Position numbers and translations under genes: made by a program. Shown here in pieces: positions 15,739 to 52,867 of a stretch of DNA of 61,160 nucleotides. The first letter of the stretch is position 1, and each line of letters starts with the position of its first letter. This DNA is from an archaeon (GTDB taxonomy: Archaea; Iainarchaeota; Iainarchaeia; Iainarchaeales; 1-14-0-10-31-34), in contig JBDRFE010000029.1 of NCBI GenBank assembly GCA_043819075.1, positions 1 to 61,160 of the forward strand, written 5' to 3'. The notes below the pieces were generated by a model. That model saw nothing but the letters and a program-made list of their open reading frames with translations. It made no database searches and was not told the DNA's origin.

Positions 15739-15766
15739 ATTCTGGAGATGAAAGGAGGCTGATGTT

Positions 15767-16153
15767 ATGGCTTTGAAAATGATCAGAGGGCATTCAACTG
15801 ACATGAATATTGACCCTCATGTTCTTCCAAGAGAGCAGAGGGATGAAGTCGGAAGAAAATATTTTTCTTACAAGACCTCTGAAATATATTATTGGGTTTT
15901 GTTCTGGCTTCTTTCTTTGAGTTTTATTTTCTTTTTATGGAAAGCTTTGTCTGAGGTTTTTTTTGTTGTTGTTGCCGGAATACTTTTTTATTTCATGATT
16001 AGAGTGCATTTCAGTTACTTAAAGAGCTGGAGCAGGTGGAATAAATATGCAAGAAAAAATGTTGTCATAATGGACCCGGAAAAACAGATTCATGTTATTA
16101 CCGGCCCAAAAATGCCGTGGTGTTCTCTGAAAGGAGTGAGAAGAGGCATTTAA
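15767..16153 (+). CDS. Small two-TM hypothetical membrane protein
   Basis: AGGAGG SD; two hydrophobic segments. Confidence 0.7.
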   Translation: MALKMIRGHSTDMNIDPHVLPREQRDEVGRKYFSYKTSEIYYWVLFWLLSLSFIFFLWKALSEVFFVVVAGILFYFMIRVHFSYLKSWSRWNKYARKNVVIMDPEKQIHVITGPKMPWCSLKGVRRGI

Positions 16154-16234: not shown

Positions 16235-17761
16235 ATGGCTGAATGGTTTTCAATGGAATCCATAAGGAAAATTAACCCGTTCCATATGCCTGCATTTCAG
16301 AGATACACTTGTGTTGAAGTAAAAAAAAGATTCGGCTTAAGGCTTGACGGAGCATGTTCGTTTCATTCAAAAAACGTTGAAATTTTGTTCAACAAAAAAC
16401 AGTTTAATTCTGCAGGAAAAAAGCTTTTAGAAAAAGTAATTAATGACCCGAAACTTGTTTCAGATGAAAACAAAAAATTAGTTAAGTATGCAAAAAAATA
16501 CAGAAAAACAGCCGACAAGATTCTGAAAACTGATTTAAGAAAAATTTCTGACAGCCAGCTTGCATTGTTTGCAGAAGAATACGCTGAAAACTATCTTAAT
16601 TCGCACAAGAACGGCGGGCACATGCTGCAATTGACAGAATTTGAGAACGAGTTTTATTCCAAATTCATCCAGTCAATCCTTGGAAAAAAAATCAGGAGAT
16701 ACAATTTAAATGAATCTTTGGCTGAAGCATTCACTTTGGCTTCAACTCCGGAAAAACTAACCAACATTCAAAAACAGGAAATTGAATTGCTTGAGTTGTA
16801 TCTTGAACTTCTTAAAAAGCCTGAACTCCTTAACTTGTTCAGGAAAAAATCAGTTAAAGAAATTGAAGAAAAGTTAAGCAAAGTTTCCCCGGCTTTTTCA
16901 AAAAAATTAAGCAATCATCACTCTAAATGGCTCTGGCTTCCTTTCATGTATGAAGGCCCTGCCTGGGAAAAAACCTATTTTATTGAAGTCCTTTCCTCTA
17001 TGGCAAGACAGTACCTTACAAAAGAAGAAGCTGAATTAAAGAAATCAGAGCCAAAAAACATGATTAAGAAAGCCGTTGCTTTCAGAAAAAAACTTCCTCT
17101 GGATAACAAAGAAAAAATGTTTTTTAAAATTCTTTTTGAGTCAGTGTACTTAAAAAGCTTCAGGAAAGACATAATGTATTTTGGCTGTTATACTGCAGAA
17201 AAACTTTTTTCTGAAATAGGAAAAAGGTTAGGGCTTTCGTTAAACCAGGTGAGAAACTTCATGCCAGAAGAAATAAAACAGGCTGTATTGCACAAAAAAT
17301 TTTCTGTGAAAGAACTGAATGACAGGCTTGACTTTACAGTCATTAAATGGATTAACTCAAAAGAAGAAGTCCTTTCAGGAAAAAAAGCAAGAAATTTTTT
17401 TAATAAAGTTTTTAAGTCAATGAAAATAAAGAAAGTAAGCAGGCTGAAAGGAAGCACCGCAGTTCCAGGCTTTGTTAAAGGAAAAGTGAAAATAGTCAAT
17501 CATCCGAACGAAATTTATAAGATGAACCAAGGAGACGTAATGGTTTCGCATTCAACTAACCCGAATCTTGTTCCGGCAATGAAGAAAGCCGGTGCAATAA
17601 TAACTGATGTAGGAGGAGTCACATGCCATGCAGCAATTGTTTCACGAGAACTGAACATTCCATGTGTTATTGGTACAAAACAGGCAACAAGAATCCTAAA
17701 AGACGGAGAAACAGTTGAAGTTGATGCTTCTCGTGGAATAATCAAGAGGCTGAAAAAATGA
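16235..17761 (+). CDS. PEP-utilising enzyme mobile (phospho-His swivel) domain protein, paralog 1
   Basis: C-terminal GGVTCHAAIVSRELNIPCVIG; about 400-aa helical N-region; no ATP-grasp or TIM barrel. Confidence 0.88.
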   Translation: MAEWFSMESIRKINPFHMPAFQRYTCVEVKKRFGLRLDGACSFHSKNVEILFNKKQFNSAGKKLLEKVINDPKLVSDENKKLVKYAKKYRKTADKILKTDLRKISDSQLALFAEEYAENYLNSHKNGGHMLQLTEFENEFYSKFIQSILGKKIRRYNLNESLAEAFTLASTPEKLTNIQKQEIELLELYLELLKKPELLNLFRKKSVKEIEEKLSKVSPAFSKKLSNHHSKWLWLPFMYEGPAWEKTYFIEVLSSMARQYLTKEEAELKKSEPKNMIKKAVAFRKKLPLDNKEKMFFKILFESVYLKSFRKDIMYFGCYTAEKLFSEIGKRLGLSLNQVRNFMPEEIKQAVLHKKFSVKELNDRLDFTVIKWINSKEEVLSGKKARNFFNKVFKSMKIKKVSRLKGSTAVPGFVKGKVKIVNHPNEIYKMNQGDVMVSHSTNPNLVPAMKKAGAIITDVGGVTCHAAIVSRELNIPCVIGTKQATRILKDGETVEVDASRGIIKRLKK

Positions 17762-19299
17762 AGAAATTAGACTGGTTTGTTGCAGAAGAGATTCCAAGGA
17801 CTCATTTTCATTTGCTTGAGCCTGTTTACGAGTACTGGGGCAAAGAAATGAAAAAAGACATTGGAATGATAATTGATGTTTTGTCTGTTTACAGGAACGG
17901 AAACGTCTTTTTTTGCTGGCCAAGAAAACAGTTCAGTTCAGCCGGAAAAAAAACTTTTGAAAAAACACTTAAAAACCCTGAATGGATGATTAAAATAAAT
18001 TTTCTTCTGGAAAAAACTGCAGGAAAACTGATTGAAAGCTCGAAAAAAATGGAGAAAAAGGATTTTTCTGTGATGACAAACAAAGAGCTTGAAAAAGTTT
18101 TTTCCAGCCACATGAAAATTCATTTCAAGTGCCATGCCCTTGGAATGCTTGCAACAATGATTGAATGGGATCACGAGCTTATTTCAAATTACCTGAAAAA
18201 TTATTTAAGCCAAAGAATCAGTGAAAAAAAGCTTTCTTTAAAGGTTGCAGAAACGTTCAGCCTGCTTACAACCCCTCTTGATGAATCCTTTCAGTTAAAA
18301 CACGAAAAAGAAATAATAAGAATTGCTTTAAATGTGCTGAATGACGAAAAAACAAAAAAACTTTTTCTTGAAAACGAACCATGCAAAATCATTGAATTGC
18401 TTCCTTTAACAAACAAAAAAATTGGCGAAGAACTTGAAGCCAATTACAGGAATTTCAGGTGGCTTCCCTTCATGTATATTGGCCCTGCATGGGAAAAAGA
18501 TTATTTTATTCAGCAGATTAAGGGCTTGATTAAATCTGGAGAAAACCTTTCCCTAATTTTGGAGAAAATGGATAACAGAATTAATGAAGTAAAAAGAAAA
18601 CAAATAGAATTAACTGAAAAACTTTCAGTTGATGAAAAACACAATAAGTTATTCGGTATTTCAAGGCAGATGATTTACTTGAAGGGATTAAGAAAGGATT
18701 CCCTCTATTATTCGTTTTTTTCTTATGAGCCTTTTTTGAAGGAACTTGGCAGAAGGCTTGGGCTTTCACTGAACCAGTTAAGATGCATGTGGCCAAGCGA
18801 GTTCAAAAAAGCAATCCTGAAAAGAGATTTTGATTCAAATGAATTAAATGAAAGGTTTAAGTTCAGCGTTTATGCCTGTGTTGATGGAAAAAGCAAGACA
18901 TTAACCGGAAAAAAAGCTGAAGCTTATGCCAGGCAGGCTCCTGATCCAAAAGAATACAAGATTTCAGAATTAGAGGGAAGTACTGCTGTTCCGGGAATGG
19001 TTAAAGGCACTGCAAAAATAATTAACCTTCCAGAAGACATGAATAAAATGAACCAAGGGGATGTTCTTGTTTCTCATGCAACCAATCCAAATTTGGTGCC
19101 TGCAATGAAAAAGGCTTCTGCAATTATTACAGATATTGGCGGGGTAACTTGTCATGCCGCCATAGTAAGCAGGGAATTAAACATTCCTTGCGTGATTGGC
19201 ACAAAAATTGCGACAAAAGTAATCAAAGACGGAGACTTATTGGATGTTAATGCCAACCATGGAATAATTAAAATACTGAAAAAGGAAGTGAAAAAATGA
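17758..19299 (+). CDS. PEP-utilising enzyme mobile domain protein, paralog 2
   Basis: Same His motif; shares WLPFMYxGPAWEK with paralog 1; ATGA overlap. Confidence 0.88.
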   Translation: MKKLDWFVAEEIPRTHFHLLEPVYEYWGKEMKKDIGMIIDVLSVYRNGNVFFCWPRKQFSSAGKKTFEKTLKNPEWMIKINFLLEKTAGKLIESSKKMEKKDFSVMTNKELEKVFSSHMKIHFKCHALGMLATMIEWDHELISNYLKNYLSQRISEKKLSLKVAETFSLLTTPLDESFQLKHEKEIIRIALNVLNDEKTKKLFLENEPCKIIELLPLTNKKIGEELEANYRNFRWLPFMYIGPAWEKDYFIQQIKGLIKSGENLSLILEKMDNRINEVKRKQIELTEKLSVDEKHNKLFGISRQMIYLKGLRKDSLYYSFFSYEPFLKELGRRLGLSLNQLRCMWPSEFKKAILKRDFDSNELNERFKFSVYACVDGKSKTLTGKKAEAYARQAPDPKEYKISELEGSTAVPGMVKGTAKIINLPEDMNKMNQGDVLVSHATNPNLVPAMKKASAIITDIGGVTCHAAIVSRELNIPCVIGTKIATKVIKDGDLLDVNANHGIIKILKKEVKK

Positions 19300-32342: not shown

Positions 32343-32780
32343 TACCCAACACCAAATAAATTCTGTTTTTATGTTGCTTTAAATCTTTACAGGGCTTACT
32401 GCCGCTGAAAAAAAATAGGTATTGGGATAATGTGAACTTTTTTTTTGCTATAATGATTACTCCTTGAAAAGATATAATCATTCACAGTTAGTTTTCCGAA
32501 CCCACGGGTTTTTGCCTGAGTAAATTCACTGCCAAAAGAAGCAATGCAGTGTTTTCAATGAAACTGCGGCCTTTTTTTAGGAGAATTCAAAGAAAACAGT
32601 TAAAAAAACTAAGTTAAGTGAATAATATAAAGGAAACCGGTTTAAAAAAAGCGCAAAAACAGGGGAAAAAGTTTGAATAAATAACCGGCAGCCTGGCTTG
32701 GAAAAGCTTTAAATAGTTATTTTGTGTTTGTCTTTAAGTTTTGGGTTAAAAAAAGGAAGTTTTTACAGGGGATTTTTTTT

Positions 32781-35756
32781 ATGGCAGAATATTTTAAGTC
32801 AATCAGGAAAAGAAACAATAAAGTTGTTGCTTTTGACAAGGAAAAAATTGCTCAGGCAATTTTTAAGGCAGCTCAAAGTGTTGGCGGAAGCGACATAGAA
32901 ACAGCCAGAAAGCTTGCAGACAAAGTTGTTTTTGTTTTAAGAATAAAATTTGATTCTGAAACAGATGTTCCTTCAGTTGAACAGGTACAGGACATAGTTG
33001 AAAAGGTTTTAGTTGAAGAAGGCCATGTAAAAACAGCCAAAGCATTCATTCTGTACAGAGAACAGCATGCAAGAATAAGGGAAATGAAGGATACCTTCAT
33101 TGATGTAGAGCATGTAATAGATGAATACCTTAACCAGAATGACTGGAGAGTAAAAGAAAACTCTAATGAAGCATACTCTTTTTCCGGGCTGTTATTGCAT
33201 ACTGCTGGAAAAGTTATTGCAAGTTACGCTCTAACGCAAATTTATCCAAAAGAAGTAAGCGAAGCATACAAAAAAGGACACATGCATATTCATGACTTAA
33301 GCCATGGATTCATTGGATACTGTGCAGGCTGGTCGCTGAAAGACTTATTGGTTAAAGGTTTTGGCGGAGTGGCAAACAAGGTTGACGCAAAACCCGCAAA
33401 ACACTTGGATGTTGTTGTTCATCAGATGGTGAATTTTATCGGCTGCCTGCAGATGGAGTTTGCAGGAGCACAGGCTTTTTCTTCTGTTGACACCTTGCTT
33501 GCGCCTTTTGTTAGGTCAGACAATTTAACTTACAGGCAGACAAAACAATGCATGCAGGAATTAGTTTATTCTTTAAACATTCCAAGCAGATGGGGCTGTT
33601 TCAGCGAGGACACAGAGATTTTAACTGAAAACGGATGGAAACCTGGAAAAGATTTAGAAGAAGGAGAAGTTATTGCAACATTTAATATGGAAAAAGATGA
33701 AATTCAATACCTGCCTGTATTGAAAATGACTAAAGACCATTTCAAGGGAAAAATGTATAACCTGAAAAACAGGATAACCGACCAGTTAATCACCCCAAAC
33801 CACAGGGTGTTAAGAAGAATCCATAATTTTGAGGAAGGAAAATCCCAATCAAAGTATGTTTTAGAAGAAGCACAAAAACTGAAAACAAAAATTCCTTTGA
33901 TTCCTTTAGGTGGAACTTTCAAAGGAAAGGAAATGGACAAGAATCTTGTTAAGTCTCTTGCTTGGATTACCTCTGAAGGAAGCTTATGCAGGAATGAAAG
34001 AATTGCAATTTACCAGTCAGAAGAAATGAATCCAGAAAACTGCAACGAAATAAGAGATTGTTTAGATGAACTTGAAATTCCTTTTGATGAAATGCCAAGG
34101 CAGTCAGGTTTTACAGGAAAAATGAATTGTGTTAGATTCAGGTTAAACAGGCCTGAATCAAGAAAAATCCATGAAGAATTTTTCCCAAATTATGTGAAAG
34201 TCATTCCGAAAAGTTTAAGGAATATTTCTACAGAACTTGCAAGAGAGTTTATAGGCACTTACATGAAAGGAGACGGACATGTGCCAGAAAACAAGATTTA
34301 CACTAAAAAGAAAGAAGATGCTGATTTCTTGCAGGAAATGATAGTGAAAAGCGGATGGGGAAGCACTCTCTACAAAAACAAAAATGGCATTTATGTTGTC
34401 AGGGTAATAAAACACGATTTCACTCAAATAAGTTCAATAACAGAAGTTGATTATGATGGAATTGTCTGGTGTCCTACTACAACCAATAAAACAGTTGTTG
34501 CAAGAAGAAACGGGAAAGTTTTTTTGAGCGGAAACTCACAGTATCCTTTCTCTAATTTAACTTTTGACTGGACTGTTCCGGAAGACCTGAAAAAAGACAA
34601 GGCAATTGTCGGCGGAAAAGAAATGAGTTTTTCTTATGGTGACTGCCAGAAAGAAATGGATATGATTAATAAATCTTTTTTAGAGGTAATGCAGGAAGGG
34701 GATGCAAGCGGAAGAATTTTTACTTTTCCTATTCCAACATACAATCTTACAAAAGACTTTAACTGGGATTCAGAGAACGCTGAATTATTGTTTGAAGTAA
34801 CAGCCAAATACGGCATTCCGTATTTCCAGAATTATGTTGGCTCTGACTTGGATCCAAAAAGCATTCGCTCAATGTGTTGCAGACTTTCCATGGATACAAA
34901 CCAGTTAATTAACAGGCCAGGAGGAATGTGGGGCCCAGGAGATGCAACTGGAAGCATTGGAGTAATAACAATTAATTTGAACAGATTAGGCTTTGAATCA
35001 AAAACAAAAGAAGAATTTTTTGAGAGACTGGCTTATTACATGAATCTGGCTAAAATTGCTTTGGAACTCAAAAGAGAAATAATTGACAAAAATCTTGAAA
35101 ATAATTTAATGCCTTACACTAAAGCTTATCTTGGAACATTCAACAACCATTTTTCTACTATCGGCTTGTGTGGAATGAATGAAGCCTGCGTTAACTTTCT
35201 TGGAAAAGACATTGCTTCCCTTGAAGGAAAAAATTTTGCAATAGAAGTTTTAACTTTTATGAGGAATAAGTGCTTTGAATTCCAGAAAGAAACACAAAAC
35301 CTTTACAATTTAGAGGCAACGCCAGCTGAATCAGCGTCATACCGTTTAGCAAAACTTGACAAAGAATTTCATCCGGAAATTTTTACTGCAGGAAAAGAAA
35401 CTCCTTATTTAACTAATTCATCCCAGCTGCCGGTTGATTTTACAGATGATGCAATTACAGCAATAATGCATCAGAATGACTTACAGCCGTTATACACTGG
35501 TGGAACAATTTTTCATACTTTTTTGGGGGAAAAAATAAGTTCAGGCAAAGCCTGCAAGCAGTTAGTGAAAAAAATTGCTGAAAACACTAAACTGCCTTAT
35601 TATTCTATTACTCCAACGTTTAGTATTTGTCCAGTTCATGGTTATGTTAAAGGAGAGCATTTCACTTGCCCTGTGGCGGTTTCGTCCGCCAGTGACGACG
35701 CAGGGCATAAAGCCCAGCTGAACGAAAAAGAAATTGCAAAGGAGGCAATAATATGA
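32781..35756 (+). CDS. nrdD: Class III anaerobic ribonucleoside-triphosphate reductase, large fragment (ATP cone, intein, no glycyl-radical loop)
   Basis: ATP cone, HIHDL, YCAGWS, SMCCRL, EATPAES, ITPTFSIC..HG; ends before any R..GY motif. Confidence 0.93.
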   Translation: MAEYFKSIRKRNNKVVAFDKEKIAQAIFKAAQSVGGSDIETARKLADKVVFVLRIKFDSETDVPSVEQVQDIVEKVLVEEGHVKTAKAFILYREQHARIREMKDTFIDVEHVIDEYLNQNDWRVKENSNEAYSFSGLLLHTAGKVIASYALTQIYPKEVSEAYKKGHMHIHDLSHGFIGYCAGWSLKDLLVKGFGGVANKVDAKPAKHLDVVVHQMVNFIGCLQMEFAGAQAFSSVDTLLAPFVRSDNLTYRQTKQCMQELVYSLNIPSRWGCFSEDTEILTENGWKPGKDLEEGEVIATFNMEKDEIQYLPVLKMTKDHFKGKMYNLKNRITDQLITPNHRVLRRIHNFEEGKSQSKYVLEEAQKLKTKIPLIPLGGTFKGKEMDKNLVKSLAWITSEGSLCRNERIAIYQSEEMNPENCNEIRDCLDELEIPFDEMPRQSGFTGKMNCVRFRLNRPESRKIHEEFFPNYVKVIPKSLRNISTELAREFIGTYMKGDGHVPENKIYTKKKEDADFLQEMIVKSGWGSTLYKNKNGIYVVRVIKHDFTQISSITEVDYDGIVWCPTTTNKTVVARRNGKVFLSGNSQYPFSNLTFDWTVPEDLKKDKAIVGGKEMSFSYGDCQKEMDMINKSFLEVMQEGDASGRIFTFPIPTYNLTKDFNWDSENAELLFEVTAKYGIPYFQNYVGSDLDPKSIRSMCCRLSMDTNQLINRPGGMWGPGDATGSIGVITINLNRLGFESKTKEEFFERLAYYMNLAKIALELKREIIDKNLENNLMPYTKAYLGTFNNHFSTIGLCGMNEACVNFLGKDIASLEGKNFAIEVLTFMRNKCFEFQKETQNLYNLEATPAESASYRLAKLDKEFHPEIFTAGKETPYLTNSSQLPVDFTDDAITAIMHQNDLQPLYTGGTIFHTFLGEKISSGKACKQLVKKIAENTKLPYYSITPTFSICPVHGYVKGEHFTCPVAVSSASDDAGHKAQLNEKEIAKEAII
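33597..34535 (+). mobile_element. Intein in NrdD (313 aa) with compact LAGLIDADG domain
   Basis: CFSEDTEILT after SRWG; ends FLSGN before +1 Ser (SQYPF); LITPNH block B; WITSEGS and YMKGDG motifs. Confidence 0.92.
35667..35719 (+). repeat. GC-rich palindromic repeat unit inside the NrdD 3' tail
   Basis: 35692-35719 matches reverse complement of 46992-47019 at 24/28; 35676-35689 matches reverse complement of 47046-47059 at 13/14. Confidence 0.75.
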
Positions 35757-35923
35757 CTAAATGCAATGCAAACTGTGAAACCTATTCAAGAATAGTGGGT
35801 TATTTCAGGCCGGTGCAGAACTGGAATATAGGAAAAAGAGAGGAATTTAAGGACAGACTAGAATACACTGAAAAAAAATCAATGAACACCCAGTTCAAGA
35901 GCGCGGAAAAACCCAAGTGCTGA
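35753..35923 (+). CDS. Separately encoded NrdD glycyl-radical segment (56 aa; not in ORF track)
   Basis: MTKCNANCETYSRIVGYFRPVQNWNIGKREEFKDR...; GGAGG SD at 35741-35745; ATGA overlap with nrdD stop. Confidence 0.92.
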   Translation: MTKCNANCETYSRIVGYFRPVQNWNIGKREEFKDRLEYTEKKSMNTQFKSAEKPKC

Positions 35924-35959
35924 TTTTTTTCTTTTTTTTCTTATTTTTTTGGTGTTAAA

Positions 35960-36658
35960 TTGATTTTAAAAGGATTGCAGAAAACAACTTTAATTGATTT
36001 TCCCGGAAAAATTGCATGCACTGTATTTACTGCTGGGTGCAATTTTCACTGCGGTTTCTGCCAGAACCCTGATTTAATTAAAATTAATTCATCTCTTCCA
36101 GAGCTTCCTGAAAAAGAATTCTTTTCTTTTTTAGAGTCAAGAAAAAAATGGCTGCAGGGAGTCTGCATTACAGGAGGCGAGCCAACACTGCATAAAGACC
36201 TTCCGGAATTCTGTGAAAAAATAAAAAAAGCCGGGTTTGAAGTAAAACTAGATTCAAACGGAAGCAATCCATTAATGTTAAAAGAATTAATTGAAAAAAA
36301 ACTGGTTGACTTTATTGCAATGGACATCAAGACTTCAAAAGAAAAATATTCTGAACTCTGTGAAACACAAGTTGATTTAGATAAAATAAATTCAAGCATT
36401 GAATTAATTAAAAACTCTGGCATTGACTATGAATTCCGTTGCACTGTTTTACCTGAATTTTTTTCAAGAGAAGACGCTTTAAAGACTGGTGAATGGCTTA
36501 AAGGCAGTAAAATCTTTGTATTACAGCAGTTCCGCAATAATCTTCCAATGGTTAACCCTGTTTTTTCAAAAAAAGAGCCTTTCACCGAAAAACAGCTGCT
36601 TGAGCTGAAAAAAACCCTTGAACCATTTTTTGATAAGGTTGAAATAAAGAATATCTGA
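35960..36658 (+). CDS. nrdG: Anaerobic RNR activating radical SAM enzyme
   Basis: TTG start; GCNFHCGFCQN, ITGGEP, KLDSNG motifs. Confidence 0.92.
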   Translation: MILKGLQKTTLIDFPGKIACTVFTAGCNFHCGFCQNPDLIKINSSLPELPEKEFFSFLESRKKWLQGVCITGGEPTLHKDLPEFCEKIKKAGFEVKLDSNGSNPLMLKELIEKKLVDFIAMDIKTSKEKYSELCETQVDLDKINSSIELIKNSGIDYEFRCTVLPEFFSREDALKTGEWLKGSKIFVLQQFRNNLPMVNPVFSKKEPFTEKQLLELKKTLEPFFDKVEIKNI

Positions 36659-36747: not shown

Positions 36748-38274
36748 ATCAAGAACACATATTATGTTACAACTCCGTTGTATTATGTTAACGACAAACC
36801 TCATATCGGCTCTGCTTACACTACTATTGCAGCTGATGTCCTTGCAAGATTTCACAGGATTAAAGGAGAAAAAGTTTTTTTTCTCACTGGAACAGACGAG
36901 CACGGGGAAAAAGTTGCCAAAGCCGCAGCAGAAAAAGGAAAAGAGCCAAAACAGTTTTTGGATGAATTAATTCCTTTTTACAAGGAAGCATGGCAGAAGC
37001 TTAACATCTCTTATGATTTTTTTATCCGCACAACAGATTTAATGCATGAAAAAGCTGTTCTAAAGTTTTTCAAGAAAATCTATGACAACGGAGACATTTA
37101 TTTAGGGGAATACGAAGGCTATTATTGTGTTCCATGCGAAACCTATTACTCTAAAACACAGTTAAAAGAAGAAAAATTCTGTCCAAGCTGCGGAAAAGAA
37201 ACACAGCTAATGAGAGAAGAATCTTATTTTTTCAGGCTAAGCAAATACCAGCAGGCATTATTAGGTTACATTGAAAGCGATGAAGTTGTATTGCCTGAAC
37301 CAAGAAAAAACGAAATAATTAATTTCATTAAACAAGGCTTAACCGATTTATCTATTTCAAGGACTTCAATTAAATGGGGGATTCCTGTTCCATTAAACAA
37401 AAAGCATGTAATTTATGTCTGGTTTGACGCCTTGCTGAATTATATTACTGCAATAGGCTATGGAAGCAATTCAAAGCAATTCAAAACCATCTGGCCTGCA
37501 GACGTGCATTTAATGGGAAAAGAAATTGTAAGGTTTCATGCAGTTATCTGGCCTGCAATGCTTCTTTCAGCTGGACTGCCTTTGCCAAAAAAAGTTTTCG
37601 GCCACGGCTGGCTTACAGTTGAAGGACAAAAAATGTCTAAATCAAAAGGCAACGTAATTGACCCGATACAGGTTTCAGAAAAATATTCTGTTGATGCATT
37701 GCGTTATTTTTTGTTAAGAGAAATTCCTTTTGGCTCTGACGGGGATTACTCAGAAAAAGCCTTGGTGCAGAGAATTAATTCAGAGTTAGCTGATTCTTTA
37801 GGAAACTTATTGAACAGGACAATTGTAATGATTGAAAAATATTTTGATGGAAAAATTCCCAAAGCATTCAATATTTCCAAACAAGAAAAAGAGTTAAGGG
37901 ATTTAACTTTAAGCAAGGCAGAGGAAACAGGTAAATTAATTGATGCGCTTGAACTGCATAAAGCCCTGGCTTCTGTCTGGGAAATAATTGACGCATCCAA
38001 TAAATTCATTAATGATTCAAAGCCATGGGAACTCGCAAAATCAGGCGAAAAAGAAAAATTAGCTAATGTCCTTTACTCTCTTTCAGAGTCTTTAAGGATT
38101 ACAAGCATTTTATTGTTTCCTTTCATGCCTGAAACCTCTAAAAAAATCCAGAAACAGTTGGGGGTAAGTTCTTTTCAGTTTGATGAAGCATTAAAATGGA
38201 ATTTAATTAAAGAAAACACTCTTACAGGCACGCCAGAAATCTTGTTCAAAAAAATTGAGGAACAGAAAAATTAG
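36748..38274 (+). CDS. metG: Methionine--tRNA ligase (short form), apparent ATC start
   Basis: YYVTTPLYYVN..PHIG (HIGH), YVWFDAL, KMSKS; conserved YYVTTP lies upstream of the track's TTG at 36778. Confidence 0.93.
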   Translation: MKNTYYVTTPLYYVNDKPHIGSAYTTIAADVLARFHRIKGEKVFFLTGTDEHGEKVAKAAAEKGKEPKQFLDELIPFYKEAWQKLNISYDFFIRTTDLMHEKAVLKFFKKIYDNGDIYLGEYEGYYCVPCETYYSKTQLKEEKFCPSCGKETQLMREESYFFRLSKYQQALLGYIESDEVVLPEPRKNEIINFIKQGLTDLSISRTSIKWGIPVPLNKKHVIYVWFDALLNYITAIGYGSNSKQFKTIWPADVHLMGKEIVRFHAVIWPAMLLSAGLPLPKKVFGHGWLTVEGQKMSKSKGNVIDPIQVSEKYSVDALRYFLLREIPFGSDGDYSEKALVQRINSELADSLGNLLNRTIVMIEKYFDGKIPKAFNISKQEKELRDLTLSKAEETGKLIDALELHKALASVWEIIDASNKFINDSKPWELAKSGEKEKLANVLYSLSESLRITSILLFPFMPETSKKIQKQLGVSSFQFDEALKWNLIKENTLTGTPEILFKKIEEQKN

Positions 38275-38843
38275 GTTAATTTTTTTTCAAAATTTATTGT
38301 TTTTGGAATTTGGTCGCCTATTATCCCGTCTTGTGTATTCATTCTTTTAAGTTTTTTTGCAAGTTCTTTTTCAGATTTAACCCCGTATTGCTGGAAAGTT
38401 CTTTTCGGGTCAGTTACTTTCATTCCTGCAGATAAAAATAATAATGCACTGGTTTTTTTTGAAGTTGAAAATTTAACTATTTTTAAGCCTGCTGATCGTG
38501 CCATGTCAAAATGAGTTTCAAGCGCTATTCTTCCAAGGCCGTGGCCACGAAACTTTGGTTCAACAGCTCTAACAAAAAAACCCAGAGAGGCTCCTCCGGC
38601 ATTAACCAGCCCTTTTTTTGTCCAAAGGAAAAAGGTTTGAAATCCGTGTTCATAAATCGCGTGAATGAATATTTTTTTCCCTGCCCTGAAAACTCTTACT
38701 TTTTCTAAAGGAGACTTAGAACGCTGTTCAAGTCTGGTTATGATTGACTTTTCAAGCATCCTTTTCCTGCCTGCACGAAACCAGCCTTTTCTGGAAGATG
38801 TTTCTGGCTGAACTATTTTTGCTTTAGGTTTTTTGCTAGGCAT
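38271..38843 (-). CDS. Basic GNAT-like hypothetical protein
   Basis: VEPKFRGHGLG acetyl-CoA-binding motif A; K/R-rich N-terminus. Confidence 0.6.
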   Translation of the reverse strand: MPSKKPKAKIVQPETSSRKGWFRAGRKRMLEKSIITRLEQRSKSPLEKVRVFRAGKKIFIHAIYEHGFQTFFLWTKKGLVNAGGASLGFFVRAVEPKFRGHGLGRIALETHFDMARSAGLKIVKFSTSKKTSALLFLSAGMKVTDPKRTFQQYGVKSEKELAKKLKRMNTQDGIIGDQIPKTINFEKKLT

Positions 38844-45102: not shown

Positions 45103-46851
45103 ATGGCTGACAAAGAAACACTGTATTCAAGCATTAAGAAACTGCTTTCACTGAATGTATCAGAAGACGAAATAATAATGAATTTAGAGGAAGTCGGAAT
45201 AAACAAGCAGGAAGCAAAAAGCCTTTTAAGGGAAGTCAAGGCACAGCAGTCAGCCAAAAAAGAAGAAAAAAAAGAAGAACCAGTTAAAACACAATTCAAG
45301 GAAACAAGAAAAGAACTGCAAAAAAAAATCCTGAAAGAAAAAGAATTCATTGAAAAAGAGCCAGAACAGCCAAAGCCAAGAGAAAAACCCAAAGAAGTTT
45401 TTTCAAAGCTTCATGCAGGTGAAACAGAGGTATGGGAGAAAGGAATCCTGACAGTAGTTAATGAAAGGCTGGATGAAATAGAAAAAATCAGGGACAACAT
45501 AGAAGAAATAATTAACGAAAAAATAAAACAAGAACTTGAAAAAGAATCAAAAAAAATTAAAGTGTTATTGGAATCGCAAAGAGAATTGCTGGTTGACAAA
45601 ATAAATTCTTCTCTTGAAGTGAAATCAAAAGAATTAAGCTCTGGAATCGAGTCAAAGCTCATTGCATTAAAGGAAATAAAGATTTCTCTTTCAGAGACAA
45701 ACAGGAAAACAGAAGAAAAAGCAAAAGAAGATGAATTAATCCTTGGGGAAATTAAGTCAAAATTGAATGAAGTTGAAGTATCAAAAAAAGGCCTTGTCAA
45801 AGCATTAAAGAATGAAATGGAAGACTTAAAGAATGAATCAAAGCAGTTCATGTTTGATTCATCCAAGCAAATAGAAGAGCTTGATGACAGGGTAAACAAA
45901 GCCTTGGAGCTTGAATCAAAGATAACTGAAGGCTTAGTGAATACAGCTGAAAAAAAAGTTGAAGAAATAACTGTAAAACAGACTGAACGCATTTCAAGGG
46001 AACTTGAAAAAAAACTTAATGCATTCGAGGAATTAACAAGAAAAATTAATCCAAAACAGACAGAAGAAAACATTAGAAAGCTTTCAGCCGACTTTGAAGT
46101 AAAGATTTCAAACATTATAAGAGAAAAAGAAGATGAAATGGATGAAGTAATTAAGCTGAAAATAAAGGAAATAGAGGAAATAAAAAAGAAAATGGAACAA
46201 GATTCAACTGCAAAAAAGATTGCAGCTGAAATGGAAATGAAAATGGAGGCTTTCAGGATGAACCTTCAGAAAGAAATAGATGAATCCCTGCAGGAAATAG
46301 AGAACACTAAAACAGAATTAAAGAAATTTATTGCAGCCCAGCTGGCTGAATCTGCAACAGAATCACAGGGACAACTTGAAAGCCTGTACGAGCAAAGAAG
46401 GAAAGAGCTTGACAGCTTTCAGAAACAGATAATAAAAAACACTAATTTAACTGAATTCAAGCAGAAAATAGATGAACTTGATATATTCAAAGACCATTTC
46501 ATTAAAACCATAAAAAAAAGCCTTGAAGACATGAATGCCCAAAAAGAAGAAATTGAAGTTTTGTTGGAAAAAAGAGAAAAACAAGTAGAAGAAAGAATAA
46601 ATGAAGTTGACTCTAAACTAAAAGAATTAGATGAATTTGAAAAATCTTTTGCAAAAGAAATGGGATTAAAGTTAGAGCAGATAAGCAGAGCCAAGTCATT
46701 AAGACAGGAAGTTCGGGAAATAAGGGCGAGAACGCCTGAAACCAGAACTTCTTCTGCGCCAGAAAAAGAAAAATCGGTTAAAGCAACAAAAACTGCGTTC
46801 AAAAGCGGGAAACAAAAAAAGTCTTCTTCTCCCGGCAGAGGAATACGTTAA
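45103..46851 (+). CDS. Long coiled-coil hypothetical protein
   Basis: 582 aa, E/K-rich heptad pattern, no TM or NTPase motifs. Confidence 0.75.
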   Translation: MADKETLYSSIKKLLSLNVSEDEIIMNLEEVGINKQEAKSLLREVKAQQSAKKEEKKEEPVKTQFKETRKELQKKILKEKEFIEKEPEQPKPREKPKEVFSKLHAGETEVWEKGILTVVNERLDEIEKIRDNIEEIINEKIKQELEKESKKIKVLLESQRELLVDKINSSLEVKSKELSSGIESKLIALKEIKISLSETNRKTEEKAKEDELILGEIKSKLNEVEVSKKGLVKALKNEMEDLKNESKQFMFDSSKQIEELDDRVNKALELESKITEGLVNTAEKKVEEITVKQTERISRELEKKLNAFEELTRKINPKQTEENIRKLSADFEVKISNIIREKEDEMDEVIKLKIKEIEEIKKKMEQDSTAKKIAAEMEMKMEAFRMNLQKEIDESLQEIENTKTELKKFIAAQLAESATESQGQLESLYEQRRKELDSFQKQIIKNTNLTEFKQKIDELDIFKDHFIKTIKKSLEDMNAQKEEIEVLLEKREKQVEERINEVDSKLKELDEFEKSFAKEMGLKLEQISRAKSLRQEVREIRARTPETRTSSAPEKEKSVKATKTAFKSGKQKKSSSPGRGIR

Positions 46852-46878
46852 AAGGCTGTTAACTCTATCAAGCTGAAA

Positions 46879-47061
46879 GCGAAGATATTGCTTCGTTGCT
46901 CGCGCTCGAAACCGTTAACGCGAAGCATATACGGCTTTACGCCGCAGCCGTCACGTTCGGCTGGTGTACGCGCACCACGTAAAGTGGTGCTAGCACGGCT
47001 TTATGCCGTGCGCCGTCACACTCGCACGGAAGCGAGTCGGTGCTCGCGGGCGAAACCGCGA
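46879..47061. repeat. GC-rich tandem hairpin array abutting the tRNA-Val 3' end
   Basis: At least seven stems, e.g. GCACCAC-GTAAA-GTGGTGC, GCACGGC-TTTAT-GCCGTGC, CAGCCG/CGGCTG, ACTCGC/GCGAGT, TCGCGG/CCGCGA. Confidence 0.8.
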
Positions 47062-47133
47062 TGGACCTGGGCGGAATCGAACCGCCAGTCTTCTGCACGT
47101 CAAGCAGACGTCATGCCACTAGACTACAGGTCC
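47062..47133 (-). tRNA. tRNA-Val(GAC)
   Basis: Minus strand: acceptor GGACCTG/CAGGTCC, anticodon arm TCTGC-TTGACGT-GCAGA, T arm GGCGG-TTCGATT-CCGCC, discriminator A. Confidence 0.95.
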
Positions 47134-47235
47134 AAAACCCTTTCCAAAGGGTTTAACGAAATGCACAGGGCAAGCCTGTGCTGCTTTTTTAAATTAACAA
47201 AAATATGGCTTAAAATCTTGTGTTAGGTAAGCTTT

Positions 47236-48144
47236 TTAAATTTTAGATAATTTACTGCACACAGAACAGATTTTTCCAGAGCTTGGGGCGCCGCATATTC
47301 CGCATGAACCTTCTTTTTGTTTTGTTTTAATCAATGGCTTTAAGTTTTCAAAGCTTGAAAGAATTGAATAAAATGTTCCAGGAAACTTGTTTTCCATTTC
47401 ATTTAACATTGACCTGAAAGCATTTCTTTTAGCCTGCCAGGAAAAAGGGCAGCAGTTTTCACTGAAATGATTTATTTCATTTAAGCTGGCGAAAGCAATA
47501 ACCTCTTTTTCCGGAGTCAAATACAACGGCTTAATCCTTGGAACAAGATTTTTTCCGCCCTCGGTTTTTGCCCCAAGCATCGCCATTCTCGTAAAATCGT
47601 TGTCAAAAAAATTCATTGAAATGCTTTGAATTTCGTCATCCAAGTTATGGCCTGTTGCAAGTTTTGTTGCATTTAATTCCATTGCCCCTGTGTTTAATAG
47701 TTTTCTTCTGAATGGCCCGCAAAAAGAACAAGTTGAACCCAAGGTTTTTTTTCTGCCTGTTTTCTTCATTACTTCAGTCATTTGTGTTCCAAGCTTTTCC
47801 TTGAATGAAAGGATTTTGAATTCAATGTTTTTTTCGTTTAAGGTTTTTATTGCAGCCTTAATTGCTTTGTCCCTGTAATTTGGTATTCCTTCATCAATCA
47901 GCAAAGCCTTTATTGTCTGTGGCTTTGAATAAAATTTGTGCATTAAATGCAGTAAAACCATTGAATCTTTTCCGCCTGAAACCCCTATTGCAATAACATC
48001 GTTTTTGTCAAGTAATTCATATTTTCTTATTGTTTTCCTGAACCTTTGCTCGAAAAAATGATTAAAGTGTGTGCTGCAAAAATTGTGCGGCCCGTAAGCT
48101 AAAAAAAATTTTGCTGTACTATTGCATCTGTCGCATTTAGCCAT
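47236..48144 (-). CDS. TtuA/Ncs6/Ctu1-family tRNA 2-thiolation protein
   Basis: N-terminal CxxC, SGGKDS PP-loop, CSFC, GHNLDD, C-terminal CxxC..CxxC. Confidence 0.88.
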   Translation of the reverse strand: MAKCDRCNSTAKFFLAYGPHNFCSTHFNHFFEQRFRKTIRKYELLDKNDVIAIGVSGGKDSMVLLHLMHKFYSKPQTIKALLIDEGIPNYRDKAIKAAIKTLNEKNIEFKILSFKEKLGTQMTEVMKKTGRKKTLGSTCSFCGPFRRKLLNTGAMELNATKLATGHNLDDEIQSISMNFFDNDFTRMAMLGAKTEGGKNLVPRIKPLYLTPEKEVIAFASLNEINHFSENCCPFSWQAKRNAFRSMLNEMENKFPGTFYSILSSFENLKPLIKTKQKEGSCGICGAPSSGKICSVCSKLSKI

Positions 48145-48880: not shown

Positions 48881-49471
48881 ATGCAGGACATTGTTTTTTA
48901 TTCAAGTGAATTTAATTTAAGCGAGTTAGCTGAAAAACAAAAACTTTTAGGCAACACTGAAGTTGTTTTGTGCAGGAATTTTTCTGACAAAGAATTAAAT
49001 GAATTAAAAGAAAAACTAAAACAATCTTTTCCGGTAAAATTTTTTTCCTGTTATTTAATGCTGAAAAACGATTCAAGGGAATTAAACAGCTTCAAGAACA
49101 AAACAGATTTCATTGCAGTTTTAGGGGGAAACCCCTGCATAAACAATTTTGCTGTTTCAAGCAAAAAAATTGATTTTTTAATCAGGCCCTGTGCTGAAGG
49201 AAGGCTTGTATTTGATACAGCTCTTGCAAGGCTTTCAAAAGAAAATAACACTAAAATAATTATTCCTTTTTCGCAGTTTCTTGGCGCAGATTCCCATAAA
49301 AGAATTTCTTTAACCAAAAATTATGCTTTTATGCTGAAAATAGCAAAAAAGTTTAAATTAATTCCAGAGATAGTTTCTTTTGCGCATTCAGTTAATGAAC
49401 TGCGTTCAGTGGAAGAACTTCTGGAATTCAAGAAATTCCTTGAAAAAAAGTATGTGAAGGCAAGTGAATGA
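48881..49471 (+). CDS. rnp3: RNase P protein Rpp30-like (divergent)
   Basis: Position between L15e and Pop5; weak PHP-like pattern (D..LARLSKEN). Confidence 0.65.
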   Translation: MQDIVFYSSEFNLSELAEKQKLLGNTEVVLCRNFSDKELNELKEKLKQSFPVKFFSCYLMLKNDSRELNSFKNKTDFIAVLGGNPCINNFAVSSKKIDFLIRPCAEGRLVFDTALARLSKENNTKIIIPFSQFLGADSHKRISLTKNYAFMLKIAKKFKLIPEIVSFAHSVNELRSVEELLEFKKFLEKKYVKASE

Positions 49472-49815
49472 ACAAAAAAAAATCTGTTAATCCTATTCCG
49501 TTGTCTTTGAGGGACAGGAAAAGGTATTTGGTTTTTCAGTTAATTTCAGATAAAAGCTTTCAGGAAAAAAGCATTGCAGTTGCGTTAAAAAATCATTTAA
49601 CAAGAATGTTCGGCGAACTTGGCTTGGGCAAAATGAATTACCAGTTCATTTTATTCAATGAAAAAACAGGCAAAGGCATAATAAAATGCAGGCACACTGC
49701 AGTAGAAGACTTAAAAGCAGGGATTTTGCTGTTAAAAGAAATCAACGGAGTCAAAGTAATTCCAAGAACACTCAAAACTTCAGGGACTGTAAAGAAAGCC
49801 AAATCTTTTGCCTGA
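49468..49815 (+). CDS. rnp2: RNase P protein Pop5/Rpp14
   Basis: LRDRKRYLVF, GIIKC, SGTVKKA motifs. Confidence 0.9.
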   Translation: MNKKKSVNPIPLSLRDRKRYLVFQLISDKSFQEKSIAVALKNHLTRMFGELGLGKMNYQFILFNEKTGKGIIKCRHTAVEDLKAGILLLKEINGVKVIPRTLKTSGTVKKAKSFA

Positions 49816-49906
49816 AGCACCTTTTATAAAACTATTTGTATTTAAATAGTTAAGAAGGAAAAAGAAGTTTTGAAAAGTTTTGATAAAACTTTTTGAAAAG
49901 TTTTAG

Positions 49907-50650
49907 GTGATTGGATTGTATCCTGGTTCTAAGGTTTCAAGTGCAGCATACGACAGGGCTGCAACAATGTTTTCCCCTGACGGAAGATTATATCAAGTAG
50001 AGTATGCGTCAAAAATAGTTGAACAAGGCACTTTAGGAATTGGCTTTGTGTACGATAAAGGAGTTTTATTTGGCGCAGACAAAAAGATTTCAAGTTCTTT
50101 GCTGCTGCCGAATTCAATTGAAAAACTCTTCAGCATTGACGACCACATTTCTGCTATTTCTTCTGGTTTAGTGGGAGACGCAAGAAGATTAGTTCAGATT
50201 GCAAGGCAGGAAAGCCAGGAAAACAAGGCTTATTACGGGGAGCCAATTCATGTTGAAACTTTAGTTAAAAAAATTGCTGCAATAATGCAGGTTTTCACGC
50301 AATACGGGGGCATGAGGCCTTTTGGCGTGAGTTTTATTTTCGGGGGCATTGACCCTAATGGAGAAAAAAAATTATTTGAAGCAGAACCATCTGGTGCATT
50401 AGCTGAATACAAGGCTGTTGCAATAGGAAAAAACAAGAAAGAGGCTACAAAAGTATTGGAGACAGGGTTTAAAGATGGAATGAATAAGAAAGATGCAGTG
50501 AATTTAATGGTTAAGGCTGTAAAAGCAAGTGTGCTTGAAAACGAGAAATTTGATGTAAACAAGCTTGATTTTGCTTTTGTTGAACAGGGAATTTCATTTA
50601 CAAGGCTTTCAGCAGAAGAATTAATTAACCTGACTTCAAACAAAAAATAA
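49907..50650 (+). CDS. psmA: Proteasome alpha subunit
   Basis: YDRAATMFSPDGRLYQVEYA, RPFGVS motifs. Confidence 0.96.
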   Translation: MIGLYPGSKVSSAAYDRAATMFSPDGRLYQVEYASKIVEQGTLGIGFVYDKGVLFGADKKISSSLLLPNSIEKLFSIDDHISAISSGLVGDARRLVQIARQESQENKAYYGEPIHVETLVKKIAAIMQVFTQYGGMRPFGVSFIFGGIDPNGEKKLFEAEPSGALAEYKAVAIGKNKKEATKVLETGFKDGMNKKDAVNLMVKAVKASVLENEKFDVNKLDFAFVEQGISFTRLSAEELINLTSNKK

Positions 50651-50703
50651 TGCTTTCAGCTTTTGTTTGGTTTCACAGCACTTTCTAGGAAAAAGGTTTT
50701 TTT

Positions 50704-51393
50704 ATGGTTAAAGTCAGCGAAGCAATAATTGCAAGATACGAGAAAGACGGGGAAAAATTTGAGGTATTGGTTGACTCAAACCTTTCAATGGAATTAAAGA
50801 AAGGAAAAAAAGTTAATTTTAATGAATTGCTTGCAATTGACACTGTATTCAAGGATGCAGGCAAAGGCACAGAGGCTTCTCCTGAAGCAATTTCAAAGGC
50901 TTTTGGCTCGACTGACATAGAAAAAGTTGTTGAAAAAATAATTAAGGATGGCAGAGTCCAGCTGACAACAGAGCAGAGAAAAAAAATTCTGGAGCAGAGG
51001 AAAAGGGAATTAATTGATTTTATTTCAAGGAATGCAATTAATCCCCAGACTAAAACACCTCATCCTCCGCAGAGAATTGAAAACGTTTTAGAGGAAGCAA
51101 AAATTCATGTTGATCCAACGAAATCAGTTCAAGAGCAGTTGCCTGAAATAATGCATAAAATAAAAATGCTTATCCCGATTTCATTGGAAAAAATCAGGAT
51201 TGCGTTCAAGATTCCAGCAGAATACGCTGGAAAAGCAAATCACTTATTGCACAAGTATGAGTTAAAGCAAGAGGAATGGACTGCAGATGGTTCTTTAGTG
51301 GTGGTATTAGAACTGCCTTCTGGTGCAAAAGAAGATTTATTGAATGAATTAGGGCATTTAACCAAGGGAAACATTGAATCAAAAATACTTTAA
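50704..51393 (+). CDS. Ribosome maturation factor SBDS/Sdo1
   Basis: GEKFEVLV, QLTTEQR, PHPPQRIE motifs. Confidence 0.95.
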   Translation: MVKVSEAIIARYEKDGEKFEVLVDSNLSMELKKGKKVNFNELLAIDTVFKDAGKGTEASPEAISKAFGSTDIEKVVEKIIKDGRVQLTTEQRKKILEQRKRELIDFISRNAINPQTKTPHPPQRIENVLEEAKIHVDPTKSVQEQLPEIMHKIKMLIPISLEKIRIAFKIPAEYAGKANHLLHKYELKQEEWTADGSLVVVLELPSGAKEDLLNELGHLTKGNIESKIL

Positions 51394-51420
51394 AAAATTG
51401 TGTTTTTAGGAGGGAATTCC

Positions 51421-52038
51421 ATGAAAAAAATAGTTGTTCCAGGGGAACTTGTAACTGAACAGAGAAAAAGGACAGGCGAGCATGTTTTTGCGTTTAACGG
51501 AAAAATTTACTCTGATGTTGTTGGCATGACTGACAGCGAATCAGACACTGCTTTTGTTGTGCCATTAAAAGGCTTTTATGTGCCAAAAAAAGATGACATT
51601 GTAATTGGCTTGATTGTAAGCGAATTATTTTCAGGCTTTTTGGTTGACATTAATTCTTTTTATTTGTCTTTTCTTTCAAAAGAGTATTTAAGGGAGCCGT
51701 TAAAAAGAGGCTCTGTTGTTTCTGTAAGGATTTCAAAAGTCAATGAATTAAATGAAGCAGATGTAACTGATGCAAGGGTTTTTTATGGCGGGGAAATTTT
51801 TTCAATTCTGTCAATTAAAGTTCCCAGAATAATAGGAAAGAATGCTTCAATGCTTGAAATACTTAAAAGAGGGACAAACAGCAATTTTGTTGTCGGAAGA
51901 AACGGGCGCATTTGGGCTAAAGGCGGAAACACAAAGCTCCTTTTCAGGGCAATAAAAAAAATAGAGCAGGAAGCTCATACATCAAATTTAACCAACAAGA
52001 TGTCTGATTTCCTGGTAAAAGAAAAAAATAATGTTTAA
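51421..52038 (+). CDS. rrp4: Exosome RNA-binding subunit Rrp4
   Basis: VVPGE, S1 domain, KVPRIIGK..SM, VGRNGRIW KH motifs. Confidence 0.93.
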   Translation: MKKIVVPGELVTEQRKRTGEHVFAFNGKIYSDVVGMTDSESDTAFVVPLKGFYVPKKDDIVIGLIVSELFSGFLVDINSFYLSFLSKEYLREPLKRGSVVSVRISKVNELNEADVTDARVFYGGEIFSILSIKVPRIIGKNASMLEILKRGTNSNFVVGRNGRIWAKGGNTKLLFRAIKKIEQEAHTSNLTNKMSDFLVKEKNNV

Positions 52039-52056
52039 TTTTGAAGGTGAAATAAA

Positions 52057-52866
52057 GTGACAAAAGAAGAAAAAAAAGTTTATGTAAATAAAAAAGGATT
52101 GCGCCTTGACGGAAGAAAAACAGATGAGACAAGGCCGATAACAATTAAGGCAGGAGTATTAAAGAACGCAAAAGGTTCCTGTTACCTTACCTGGGGGCAG
52201 AACAAGGTTTTAGTTTCAGTTAACGGGCCGAATGAAGTGCTTCCAAAACACATGTCTGACCCATTGAAAGCAATAATTAAATTCAATTACCGAATGGCTG
52301 CTTTCTCTGTTCCAGACAGGAAAAACCCAAAGCCTGGAAGAAGGGATATAGAGATTTCAAAGGTATGCGGTGAAGCATTAGAGAAAGCAATTTTTGTTGA
52401 AAAATACCCTAATTCCCAGATAGAGGTTTGGGCGCAGATTTTGGACAGCAATGCAGGCTCTAGGGCTGCAGCATTAACTGCTGCTTCAGTTGCATTAGCT
52501 GATGCAGGAATTCCGATGAGGGATTTGGTTACTTCTGTTGCAGTCGGCAGGGTTGACGGAAAAATTGTTCTGGATTTGAATAAAGAAGAAGAAGATGCAC
52601 CTGATGCAGTTGACATGCCTGTTGCATTGCTTTCAAATTCAAAAGAAATTGTTTTGCTTCAGATGGATGGCTTGTTTTCAAAAAAAGAATGGGAAGAAGC
52701 ATTTGAGGTTGCAGCAAAAGGCATTGATGAAATAAAAAAATTGCAGGTGAATGCATTAAGGGAACAATTTGAAAACACTTTTTCGGATGAAAAAGCAAAT
52801 GAACTTAATCCAGAGAAAATTACTGAAAAAACAATATCAGATGAAACAAAAACAGGGGTGCAGTAA
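52057..52866 (+). CDS. rrp41: Exosome subunit Rrp41
   Basis: RLDGRK, PGRRDIEIS, AGSRAAA, DAVDMP motifs. Confidence 0.93.
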   Translation: MTKEEKKVYVNKKGLRLDGRKTDETRPITIKAGVLKNAKGSCYLTWGQNKVLVSVNGPNEVLPKHMSDPLKAIIKFNYRMAAFSVPDRKNPKPGRRDIEISKVCGEALEKAIFVEKYPNSQIEVWAQILDSNAGSRAAALTAASVALADAGIPMRDLVTSVAVGRVDGKIVLDLNKEEEDAPDAVDMPVALLSNSKEIVLLQMDGLFSKKEWEEAFEVAAKGIDEIKKLQVNALREQFENTFSDEKANELNPEKITEKTISDETKTGVQ

Positions 52867-52867
52867 A

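Follow-up and report, generated by a model that had tools for sequence, protein, structure and literature searches.

The gene nrdD, which encodes the class III (anaerobic) ribonucleotide reductase (RNR), is split in the archaeal contig JBDRFE010000029.1, and the tail of its large open reading frame (ORF) harbors a GC-rich segment (positions 35673–35720) that is probably one copy of a lineage-specific 48-nt repeat composed of two hairpins, residing as a tolerated passenger in a gene that had been split already. The window (the whole stretch of DNA analyzed here) is a single contig stretch of 61,160 nt with 35% GC; homologous loci of relatives are numbered L001 etc. and their proteins P0001 etc. 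The original prediction, made from the window alone, had regarded the insert as a copy of a modular hairpin repeat family that can be read in frame in a coding tail, and this is borne out by non-coding copies in the tRNA-Val trailer of the window, in an intergenic region of L007, and at the Lsm 3' end and in the tRNA-Ala trailer of L095.

Structure of the module in the nrdD tail

The large ORF of nrdD occupies positions 32782–35756 of the forward strand and comprises an ATP-cone, the NRDD catalytic body and a LAGLIDADG intein (Pfam NRDD, 8e-162, profile covered to 526 of 562; LAGLIDADG_3). Its likely start is the ATG at 32782 (MAEYFK), the choice of the ORF lister being the GTG at 32724. Homologues can all be aligned up to the motif GEHFxCP, whose Cys-Pro codons (TGC CCT, 35667–35672, forward strand) are the final conserved codons of NrdD. 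The variable loop of the zinc ribbon begins after them, and the tail from there to the stop of the large ORF has no conserved sequence across the clade. Past TGC CCT the window reads GTG GCGGTTTCGTCCGC CAGTGACGAC GCAGGGCATAAAGCCCAGC TG, followed by an A-rich stretch with AAGGAGG and by the stop at 35756; the tail peptide includes …CPVAVSSASDDAGHK.

The module is located directly 3' of the Cys-Pro codons, at the same site in every lineage that carries one there. It is formed by hairpin A (GGCGG-TTTCGT-CCGCC, 35675–35690), a 9-nt spacer and hairpin B (GCAGGGC-ATAAA-GCCCAGC with one A·A mismatch, 35700–35718), all on the forward strand, and it scores 69.5 bits with the covariance model described below, of which it is a training member. 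The segment 35661–35718 (58 nt) is one of about 20 GC-rich islands in the window. The in-frame translation VAVSSASDDAGHKAQL given in the original prediction is correct. Since the module equals exactly 16 codons and leaves two of the three frames open, its insertion into the unconserved tail affects neither the catalytic body nor the overlap of stop and start nor the small ORF that follows.

The remainder of the linker (35721–35752, forward strand) is AT-rich, is common to the relatives without a module and contains the Shine-Dalgarno-like GGAGG at 35741–35745, 7 nt 5' of the start codon of the small ORF. Between the end of the module and the Shine-Dalgarno sequence, which is not sequestered, lie 20 nt, and the fold of the whole junction shows no unusual stability (z=−1.3). 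The earlier placement of the repeat exactly at the break of the gene is right in that the module abuts the last conserved codons; it does not extend to the reading frames themselves, as the large ORF runs on for 27 codons past Cys-Pro and the small ORF starts 80 nt past the Pro codon.

Relation to the hairpin array behind tRNA-Val

The resemblance to a distant part of the window, on which the original prediction was based, holds in all its details. The match of 35692–35719 to the reverse complement of 46992–47019 (24/28) and that of 35676–35689 to the reverse complement of 47046–47059 (13/14) are both exact as described, and the compensatory change GGGC/GCCC versus CGGC/GCCG is real, being one of many among the copies. 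The tRNA-Val(GAC) gene (47060–47134, reverse strand) is one of two tRNAs in the window above the Rfam gathering threshold. Directly behind it lies an array of about 8 back-to-back hairpins (46861–47061, reverse strand, ~200 nt) with a folding energy of −90.8 kcal/mol (z=−4.0). The first hairpin of the array (TCGCGG-TTTCGC-CCGCGA, 47044–47061, reverse strand) touches the 3' end of tRNA-Val and is closer in its letters to hairpin A of nrdD, yet it is not the module-level partner of the latter. This partner is the second hairpin (47020–47037, CTCGC-TTCCGT-GCGAG), which is situated 9 nt before the B hairpin. Together with the spacer TGTGACGGC and the hairpin GCACGGC-ATAAA-GCCGTGC it makes up a full 48-nt copy of the module (46991–47038, reverse strand; 55.7 bits, E=2.7e-13), identical to the nrdD module at 34 of 48 positions.

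By the covariance model two weaker module-like sites flank tRNA-Val. A weak module-like hairpin pair is found 5' of the tRNA gene (47136–47183, forward strand; 18.4 bits, E=0.007), antisense to both neighbor genes; its B-like hairpin GCACAGG-GCAAG-CCTGTGC agrees at 18 of 19 positions with the first of the B hairpins that L004 has in its nrdD tail.

When the 50-nt insert was compared with the rest of the window by blastn-short, the B unit was the top match (33.4 bits, E=2e-4), and the colinear A unit, on the same strand and 27 nt off, tied for second place. With 300 shuffled queries the best score was 29.5, below the observed one, so that a chance match, which the original prediction had allowed for, is excluded. 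A degenerate pattern for the A unit, expected 0.06 times, was found twice. Known RNA families do not account for these elements: only the two tRNAs reach the Rfam gathering threshold, neither the module nor the array matches a family at that threshold, and in 46700–47250 nothing credible appeared at E up to 10.

A 582-aa ORF without a Pfam family ends 30 nt before the hairpin array. At a distance of 2 kb from the array there is a cluster of RNA-processing genes (48881–53650) encoding RNase P p30 and Pop5, the proteasome alpha subunit, SBDS and the exosome proteins Rrp4, Rrp41 and Rrp42. The proximity of this cluster bears on any effect that the hairpins could have on the decay of RNA 3' ends.

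Copies in other loci and genomes

The covariance model was built on five copies, namely those in the nrdD tails of the window and L001, two in L004 and the intergenic one of L007, the tRNA-Val copy being left out. All five have the identical 48-nt layout: a 5-bp stem with a hexaloop of TTTCGY type, a 9-nt spacer (sAGyrACrAn with the neighbor base) and a 7-bp stem with a pentaloop of ATAAA type. GC-rich module material directly after Cys-Pro is present in the nrdD tails of three other lineages besides the window. The content of these tails differs: A+B in the window, A'+A+B in L001, A and a decayed B in L002/L003, and A+B+A+B in L004/L005. The family is modular, with A-type (TTTCGY loop) and B-type (ATAAA loop) hairpins strung in different numbers.

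Outside nrdD the same element occurs in unrelated surroundings. L007 has its module in the intergenic region 350 nt upstream of nrdD and none in the tail, while L004 shows the reverse; the L007 copy shares the 21-mer TCGCGGTTTCGCCCGCGAGCA with the tRNA-Val trailer of the window. In L095, where the nrdD linker is empty, a copy was detected by the covariance model 9 nt past the Lsm stop codon (E=1.9e-8), and B-type hairpins stand directly behind tRNA-Ala(GGC) (regions 16794–16900 and 17851–17960). At the corresponding Lsm 3' end the window lacks a GC island, and neither there nor behind its orthologous tRNA-Ala does it have such a module or such hairpins. Run X4, another groundwater run, has a short contig with one more A+B copy in other surroundings. 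The home of the family is usually just past the ends of genes and tRNAs. The hosts are AT-rich groundwater DPANN archaea, the source labels of the relatives being Micrarchaeota, Diapherotrites and Iainarchaeum. No description of such repeats in DPANN was met in the literature searched, and the present locus adds a case of an in-frame coding tail to what is apparently an undescribed archaeal counterpart of known hairpin repeats (see below).

In the window's own population the module is present on a 7.9-kb contig. These groundwater metagenomes contain sibling lineages that differ in module load, and one run has two or more of them. In run X1, which covers 35300–36100 best among the DNA runs, a co-occurring relative of ~85% identity has 133 other letters in place of 55 nt of the linker. 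A relative with an empty linker like that of L006 is present in run X5, which belongs to another groundwater study.

A promoter-like block (GGTATTGGG ... GGATTTTAATAACCTTT) is shared by the regions upstream of nrdD (L007 1640–1830; L002 620–930; window 32440–32580). It is followed by a variable run of hairpins ending in a T-run, and in L007 this run holds the full 48-nt module. This run might represent a gene for a small RNA, or else a further site at which hairpin modules accumulate.

Constraint on the nucleic acid

In the B stem, compared across seven copies, 93.8% of the cells are paired and five of the seven pairs change on both sides (GGC/GCC, GGG/CCC, AGG/CCT, AAC/GTT). Controls with slid partners gave 12–40% paired, and none of 500 shuffles reached the covariation score. 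The A stem behaves similarly across nine copies: 84% of the cells are paired, three of five pairs change on both sides, and the score was again reached by 0 of 500 shuffles.

The peptide encoded by the module behaves differently. Variable columns among the four nrdD copies are distributed over the codon positions 1/2/3 as 10/6/8; for comparison, the differences in the 300 nt of nrdD immediately upstream are distributed as 12/5/42, and other pairs are similar. The compensatory changes in the stems rewrite the peptide on both sides of the loop (AGHKAQL, ARDKPEL, AQDKPVL). As the stems covary and no third-position bias is seen, the constraint acts on the nucleic acid and not on the module peptide. 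The original prediction had named protein-level conservation of the same tail in relatives as the outcome that would speak against a repeat; the tails were found to be alike through the shared DNA module. A K-turn (kink-turn) or C/D-box in the spacer (GUGACGA ... CUGA) was rejected by inspection, as only the nrdD copy of the window fits it and the other copies do not conserve it.

The split of nrdD

The second part of the enzyme is encoded by a small ORF (35753–35923, forward strand; 56 aa, MTKCNANCETYSRIVGYFRP...), whose ATG overlaps the stop of the large ORF (ATGA). It matches the Pfam NRDD profile from 526 to 562 (2.3e-10) and contains the second half of the zinc ribbon, with CxxxC, and the glycyl-radical loop. 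NrdD is cut cleanly between the two halves of the C-terminal zinc ribbon (Pfam 526 | 526–562), and the ribbon would be built from both polypeptides. The third gene of the unit is nrdG, the radical-SAM activase (35960–36658, forward strand). Stand-alone glycyl-radical proteins of the GrcA/YfiD type likewise present the glycyl-radical loop as a small polypeptide of its own, but the small ORF of nrdD is the enzyme's own C-terminus with half of a zinc ribbon and not a spare part; this comparison concerns the host gene and not the repeat.

All eight fetched relatives have the same order: the large ORF, a small ORF of 53–57 aa and then nrdG. The annotated small ORF of L007 has 72 aa, as it begins at an upstream ATG, with the conserved MTKC start lying inside it. 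The sequence GGAGG stands 6–9 nt before ATG ACT RAA TGY in 8/8 of these relatives, and in the clade the start of the small ORF overlaps the preceding stop in most cases. Among the 121 best homologues, 26 end shortly past ...GEHFxCP with unrelated tails. Unsplit relatives have either CPxCGxxxEVYSRIVGY or a variable loop CP-x(6–25)-CGKxCEVYSR, so the cut falls in a loop that is naturally variable. In the searched literature no paper was found on a split of NrdD at the glycyl-radical loop.

The split does not depend on the module. In four of the eight fetched relatives (L006–L009) the linker is AT-rich and bears no trace of a module; it is 35–38 nt long in L006 and L007, and in L008 and L009 the covariance model gives at most 1 bit, so that decayed remnants there are unsupported. 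Module-free splits occur also in L019, L020 and L022 (Iainarchaeum-labelled, Parvarchaeota-labelled and one 49%-GC archaeon); these three came from a search for related loci in the species-representative genomes, whose matches were for the most part bacterial or distant NrdD. The split is present in all nine members of the well-supported clade of the window, in sister clades and in more distant archaea, and at least 4–5 changes on the tree are required to explain it. It predates the module and does not depend on it, the module being most probably a passenger at the break. Since many relatives have the split without the module, the module did not cause it. The original prediction had left open whether the element caused or followed the gene split; of these only the second stands. 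The comparison of nrdD tails that it had proposed showed module material in three other lineages and the split equally present where the module is absent. This corrects the attractive idea that such repeats break genes here. It also helps annotation: the odd low-complexity tails of DPANN NrdD proteins are explained, and the glycyl-radical loop has to be sought in a small ORF of its own, which may be overlooked or wrongly named by gene callers.

Turnover of the module

In the tree calculated from full-length exteins, each of three sister pairs consists of one module-bearing and one module-free lineage: the window and P0003 (84/89), P0006 and P0004 (100/100), and P0005 and P0008 (97/95). Two of the pairs are strongly supported and that of the window is weaker. 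A single clade of module bearers was rejected by the approximately unbiased (AU) test (p=8e-8). As the bearers are not monophyletic, at least three gains or losses of the module have taken place at the nrdD site among these nine close relatives.

Presence and absence vary at further orthologous sites besides the nrdD linker, namely at the Lsm 3' end (L095 versus the window) and upstream of nrdD (L007 versus L004). The module has been duplicated in L004 and has decayed in L002. The double module of L004 looks like a 72-nt tandem duplication; its two modules differ at 13/48 positions, about equal to the third-position divergence between L004 and L007 (51/200). The locus is a clean natural experiment, in which an essential gene is found in sister lineages that differ only by zero, one or two 48-nt modules; it places the module in time relative to the split and shows that base-pairing, not the encoded peptide, has shaped it.

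Alternative explanations

Three readings that would connect the module more closely with the protein or with the split were weighed. Four lineages have similar tails in the same frame, and this could suggest a conserved peptide motif (xAVSSA..D..KPxLQ), e.g. for docking of the small subunit, and the tRNA-Val array would then resemble it only secondarily. This is highly improbable: the excess of third-position substitutions is absent, the residues to either side are altered by the paired stem changes (G-H..A-Q versus R-D..P-V), non-coding sites contain the same DNA, and sister lineages lack the peptide entirely. An ancestral insertion of the module into the CP loop might have made the split by supplying stop, Shine-Dalgarno sequence and ATG, with clean losses afterwards. 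The position of the module at the first unconserved codon after CP in every carrier lineage and the existence of clean absences agree with this, but the part with Shine-Dalgarno sequence and ATG is AT-rich, unlike the module, and splits in the same loop are found in at least 4–5 separate places of the tree and in distant module-free archaea. Moreover, unsplit relatives with long variable loops at this point (P0062, P0071) offer a simpler route to a split, and the pattern already seen is one of unsplit outgroups with an empty loop and of module-free split forms basal in the split clades. Such an origin of the split is therefore considered very improbable. Finally, the linker could be an intervening sequence that is removed (an intron of the bulge-helix-bulge type) or skipped by the ribosome (bypassing), giving one full-length NrdD. 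The Pfam coverage is indeed seamless, with the large ORF up to 526 and the small ORF from 526, and removal of 86 nt would yield CP-KCNANC in frame. The frame offset between the two ORFs is, however, not constant (L002/L003 differ from the rest), every relative has GGAGG and ATG at the right spacing, and there are neither conserved bulge-helix-bulge pairing nor matched take-off and landing codons, which leaves this reading hardly any probability. An archaeal intron was rejected on the absence of the bulge-helix-bulge motif from the junction fold as well as on the varying offset and the conserved Shine-Dalgarno sequence and ATG. A programmed bypass like that of T4 gene 60 or mitochondrial byp was rejected because the module is preceded by CCT or GTG and followed by AAC, with no stop beside the take-off. 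That the frame offset varies and that Shine-Dalgarno sequence and ATG are conserved speaks for two polypeptides translated separately and against an intron, a frameshift or a bypass. In the metatranscriptomes of the same study only low-complexity matches to T-runs were obtained, the organism not being detectably present.

The other readings concern the role of the module itself. It may have a function in RNA, both within the nrdD-nrdD'-nrdG transcript and within tRNA trailers, as a block to 3'-to-5' decay, as a processing or boundary signal, or as a pause site for translational coupling. The covarying stems, the loops (TTTCGY, ATAAA) and the spacer length kept across genomes and contexts fit such a role, as do the sense orientation of most placeable copies at or just past gene ends (nrdD tail, tRNA-Val and tRNA-Ala trailers, Lsm stop) and the genes for exosome subunits and RNase P proteins encoded nearby, for which 3'-end hairpins could matter. 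On the other side, the module is missing from the same operon in half of the closest relatives, hairpin B is decayed in L002, one copy in the window is antisense to both neighbors, and the module neither sequesters the Shine-Dalgarno sequence, ending 20 nt before it, nor makes the junction fold unusually stable. We regard a function in RNA as rather unlikely on this balance. A related and more doubtful proposal is that machinery recognizing the hairpins and loops, in DNA or RNA, delivers the modules to the 3' boundaries of expression units or maintains them there, the nrdD copies being elements of a cistron boundary. The boundaries in question would be the discriminator ends of tRNAs, stop codons and the end of the large nrdD cistron. 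If so, the junction of the split nrdD would be treated as a gene boundary and the in-frame copies would set processing, stability or coupling of the messages for the RNR subunits.

Compared with these, the explanation by a tolerated passenger repeat requires the following course of events. The class III RNR gene would have been split first, in the variable loop of the C-terminal zinc ribbon. The module would then have lodged in the unconserved tail of the large ORF, where it is presumably translated through. By analogy with bacterial, rickettsial and mitochondrial hairpin repeats the module may be a selfish or neutral passenger spreading as DNA, and the nrdD tail would be a tolerated site of the "gene-end" kind. 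Several observations weigh against this explanation or limit it. No transposase or integrase family was found among the 54 window ORFs with a length of 110 aa or more, nor any RAYT/Y1 mobilizer (REP-associated tyrosine transposase) within these 61 kb. There are no terminal inverted repeats and no clear target-site duplication, so that mobility is suggested by the patchy distribution alone, and gain and loss of the module cannot be distinguished from these data. Four of the five placeable copies are sense to the neighboring gene and the loops are conserved, which would suit a strand-specific RNA function too. A composite A-gap-B pattern had 0 matches in the species-representative genomes, a collection with no member of the close nrdD clade, and 5 matches in the metagenome contigs of the Joint Genome Institute (JGI), of which four are chance matches in GC-rich contigs and one is an nrdD junction of the L001 type. 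The size of the family in this analysis rests on a handful of loci.

Comparison with known repeats

The module resembles the repetitive extragenic palindromic (REP) sequences, the bacterial interspersed mosaic elements (BIMEs) and the REP doublets forming hairpins (REPINs) in being a short imperfect palindrome arranged in hairpin mosaics, mainly at gene ends and between cistrons, with a patchy distribution and compensatory changes in the stems. It differs from REP/BIME in its archaeal host, in its conserved loops and spacer, in the fixed 48-nt geometry of two hairpins and in the location of the present copy inside the tail of a translated ORF. REP palindromes are reported to begin or end with a conserved tetranucleotide, GTAG or CGTC (PMC3733652). 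By eye, with no pattern search run, no such head is seen on the full-module copies, which start with GTGGCGG, TTGCCGG, GTCGCGG, GAGCCGG and GCAACGG.

Rickettsia palindromic elements (RPEs; PMC10969869) are similar in that a palindromic repeat stands in frame in a housekeeping gene and is translated in a tolerant part of it. They are, however, ~100–150 bp long, belong to other sequence families and lie within folded proteins, whereas the module has 48 nt, resides in an unconserved C-terminal tail and is non-coding in most of the family copies seen. Yeast GC clusters (PMC4478555) and the repetitive hairpin-forming elements of sponges (PMC2800124) are reported as likewise GC-rich hairpins in AT-rich reduced genomes, clustered near tRNA genes and gene ends; such mitochondrial elements are reported to lie now and then in frame within coding sequence and to have a rapid turnover. 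They are organellar and have no sequence relationship to the module, and in some relatives of yeast such inserts are reportedly bypassed in translation, of which nrdD gives no sign. A miniature inverted-repeat transposable element (MITE) was rejected, as the module consists of two separate local palindromes with no terminal inverted repeats and no consistent duplication is seen when the flanks of filled and empty sites are compared.

Other features of the window

Nine ORFs of 128–604 aa are devoid of a Pfam family at E≤1e-5, including those at 2152–3966, 3990–4682, 14009–14515, 15343–16153, 38271–38843, 45103–46851, 54263–54742 and 59571–60806. The nrdD of the window has one LAGLIDADG intein, and the nearby genes of MCM and topoisomerase VI-B bear inteins too. 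The intein load of nrdD varies strongly among P0001–P0008, the proteins having 671–1503 aa and from zero to apparently two inteins.

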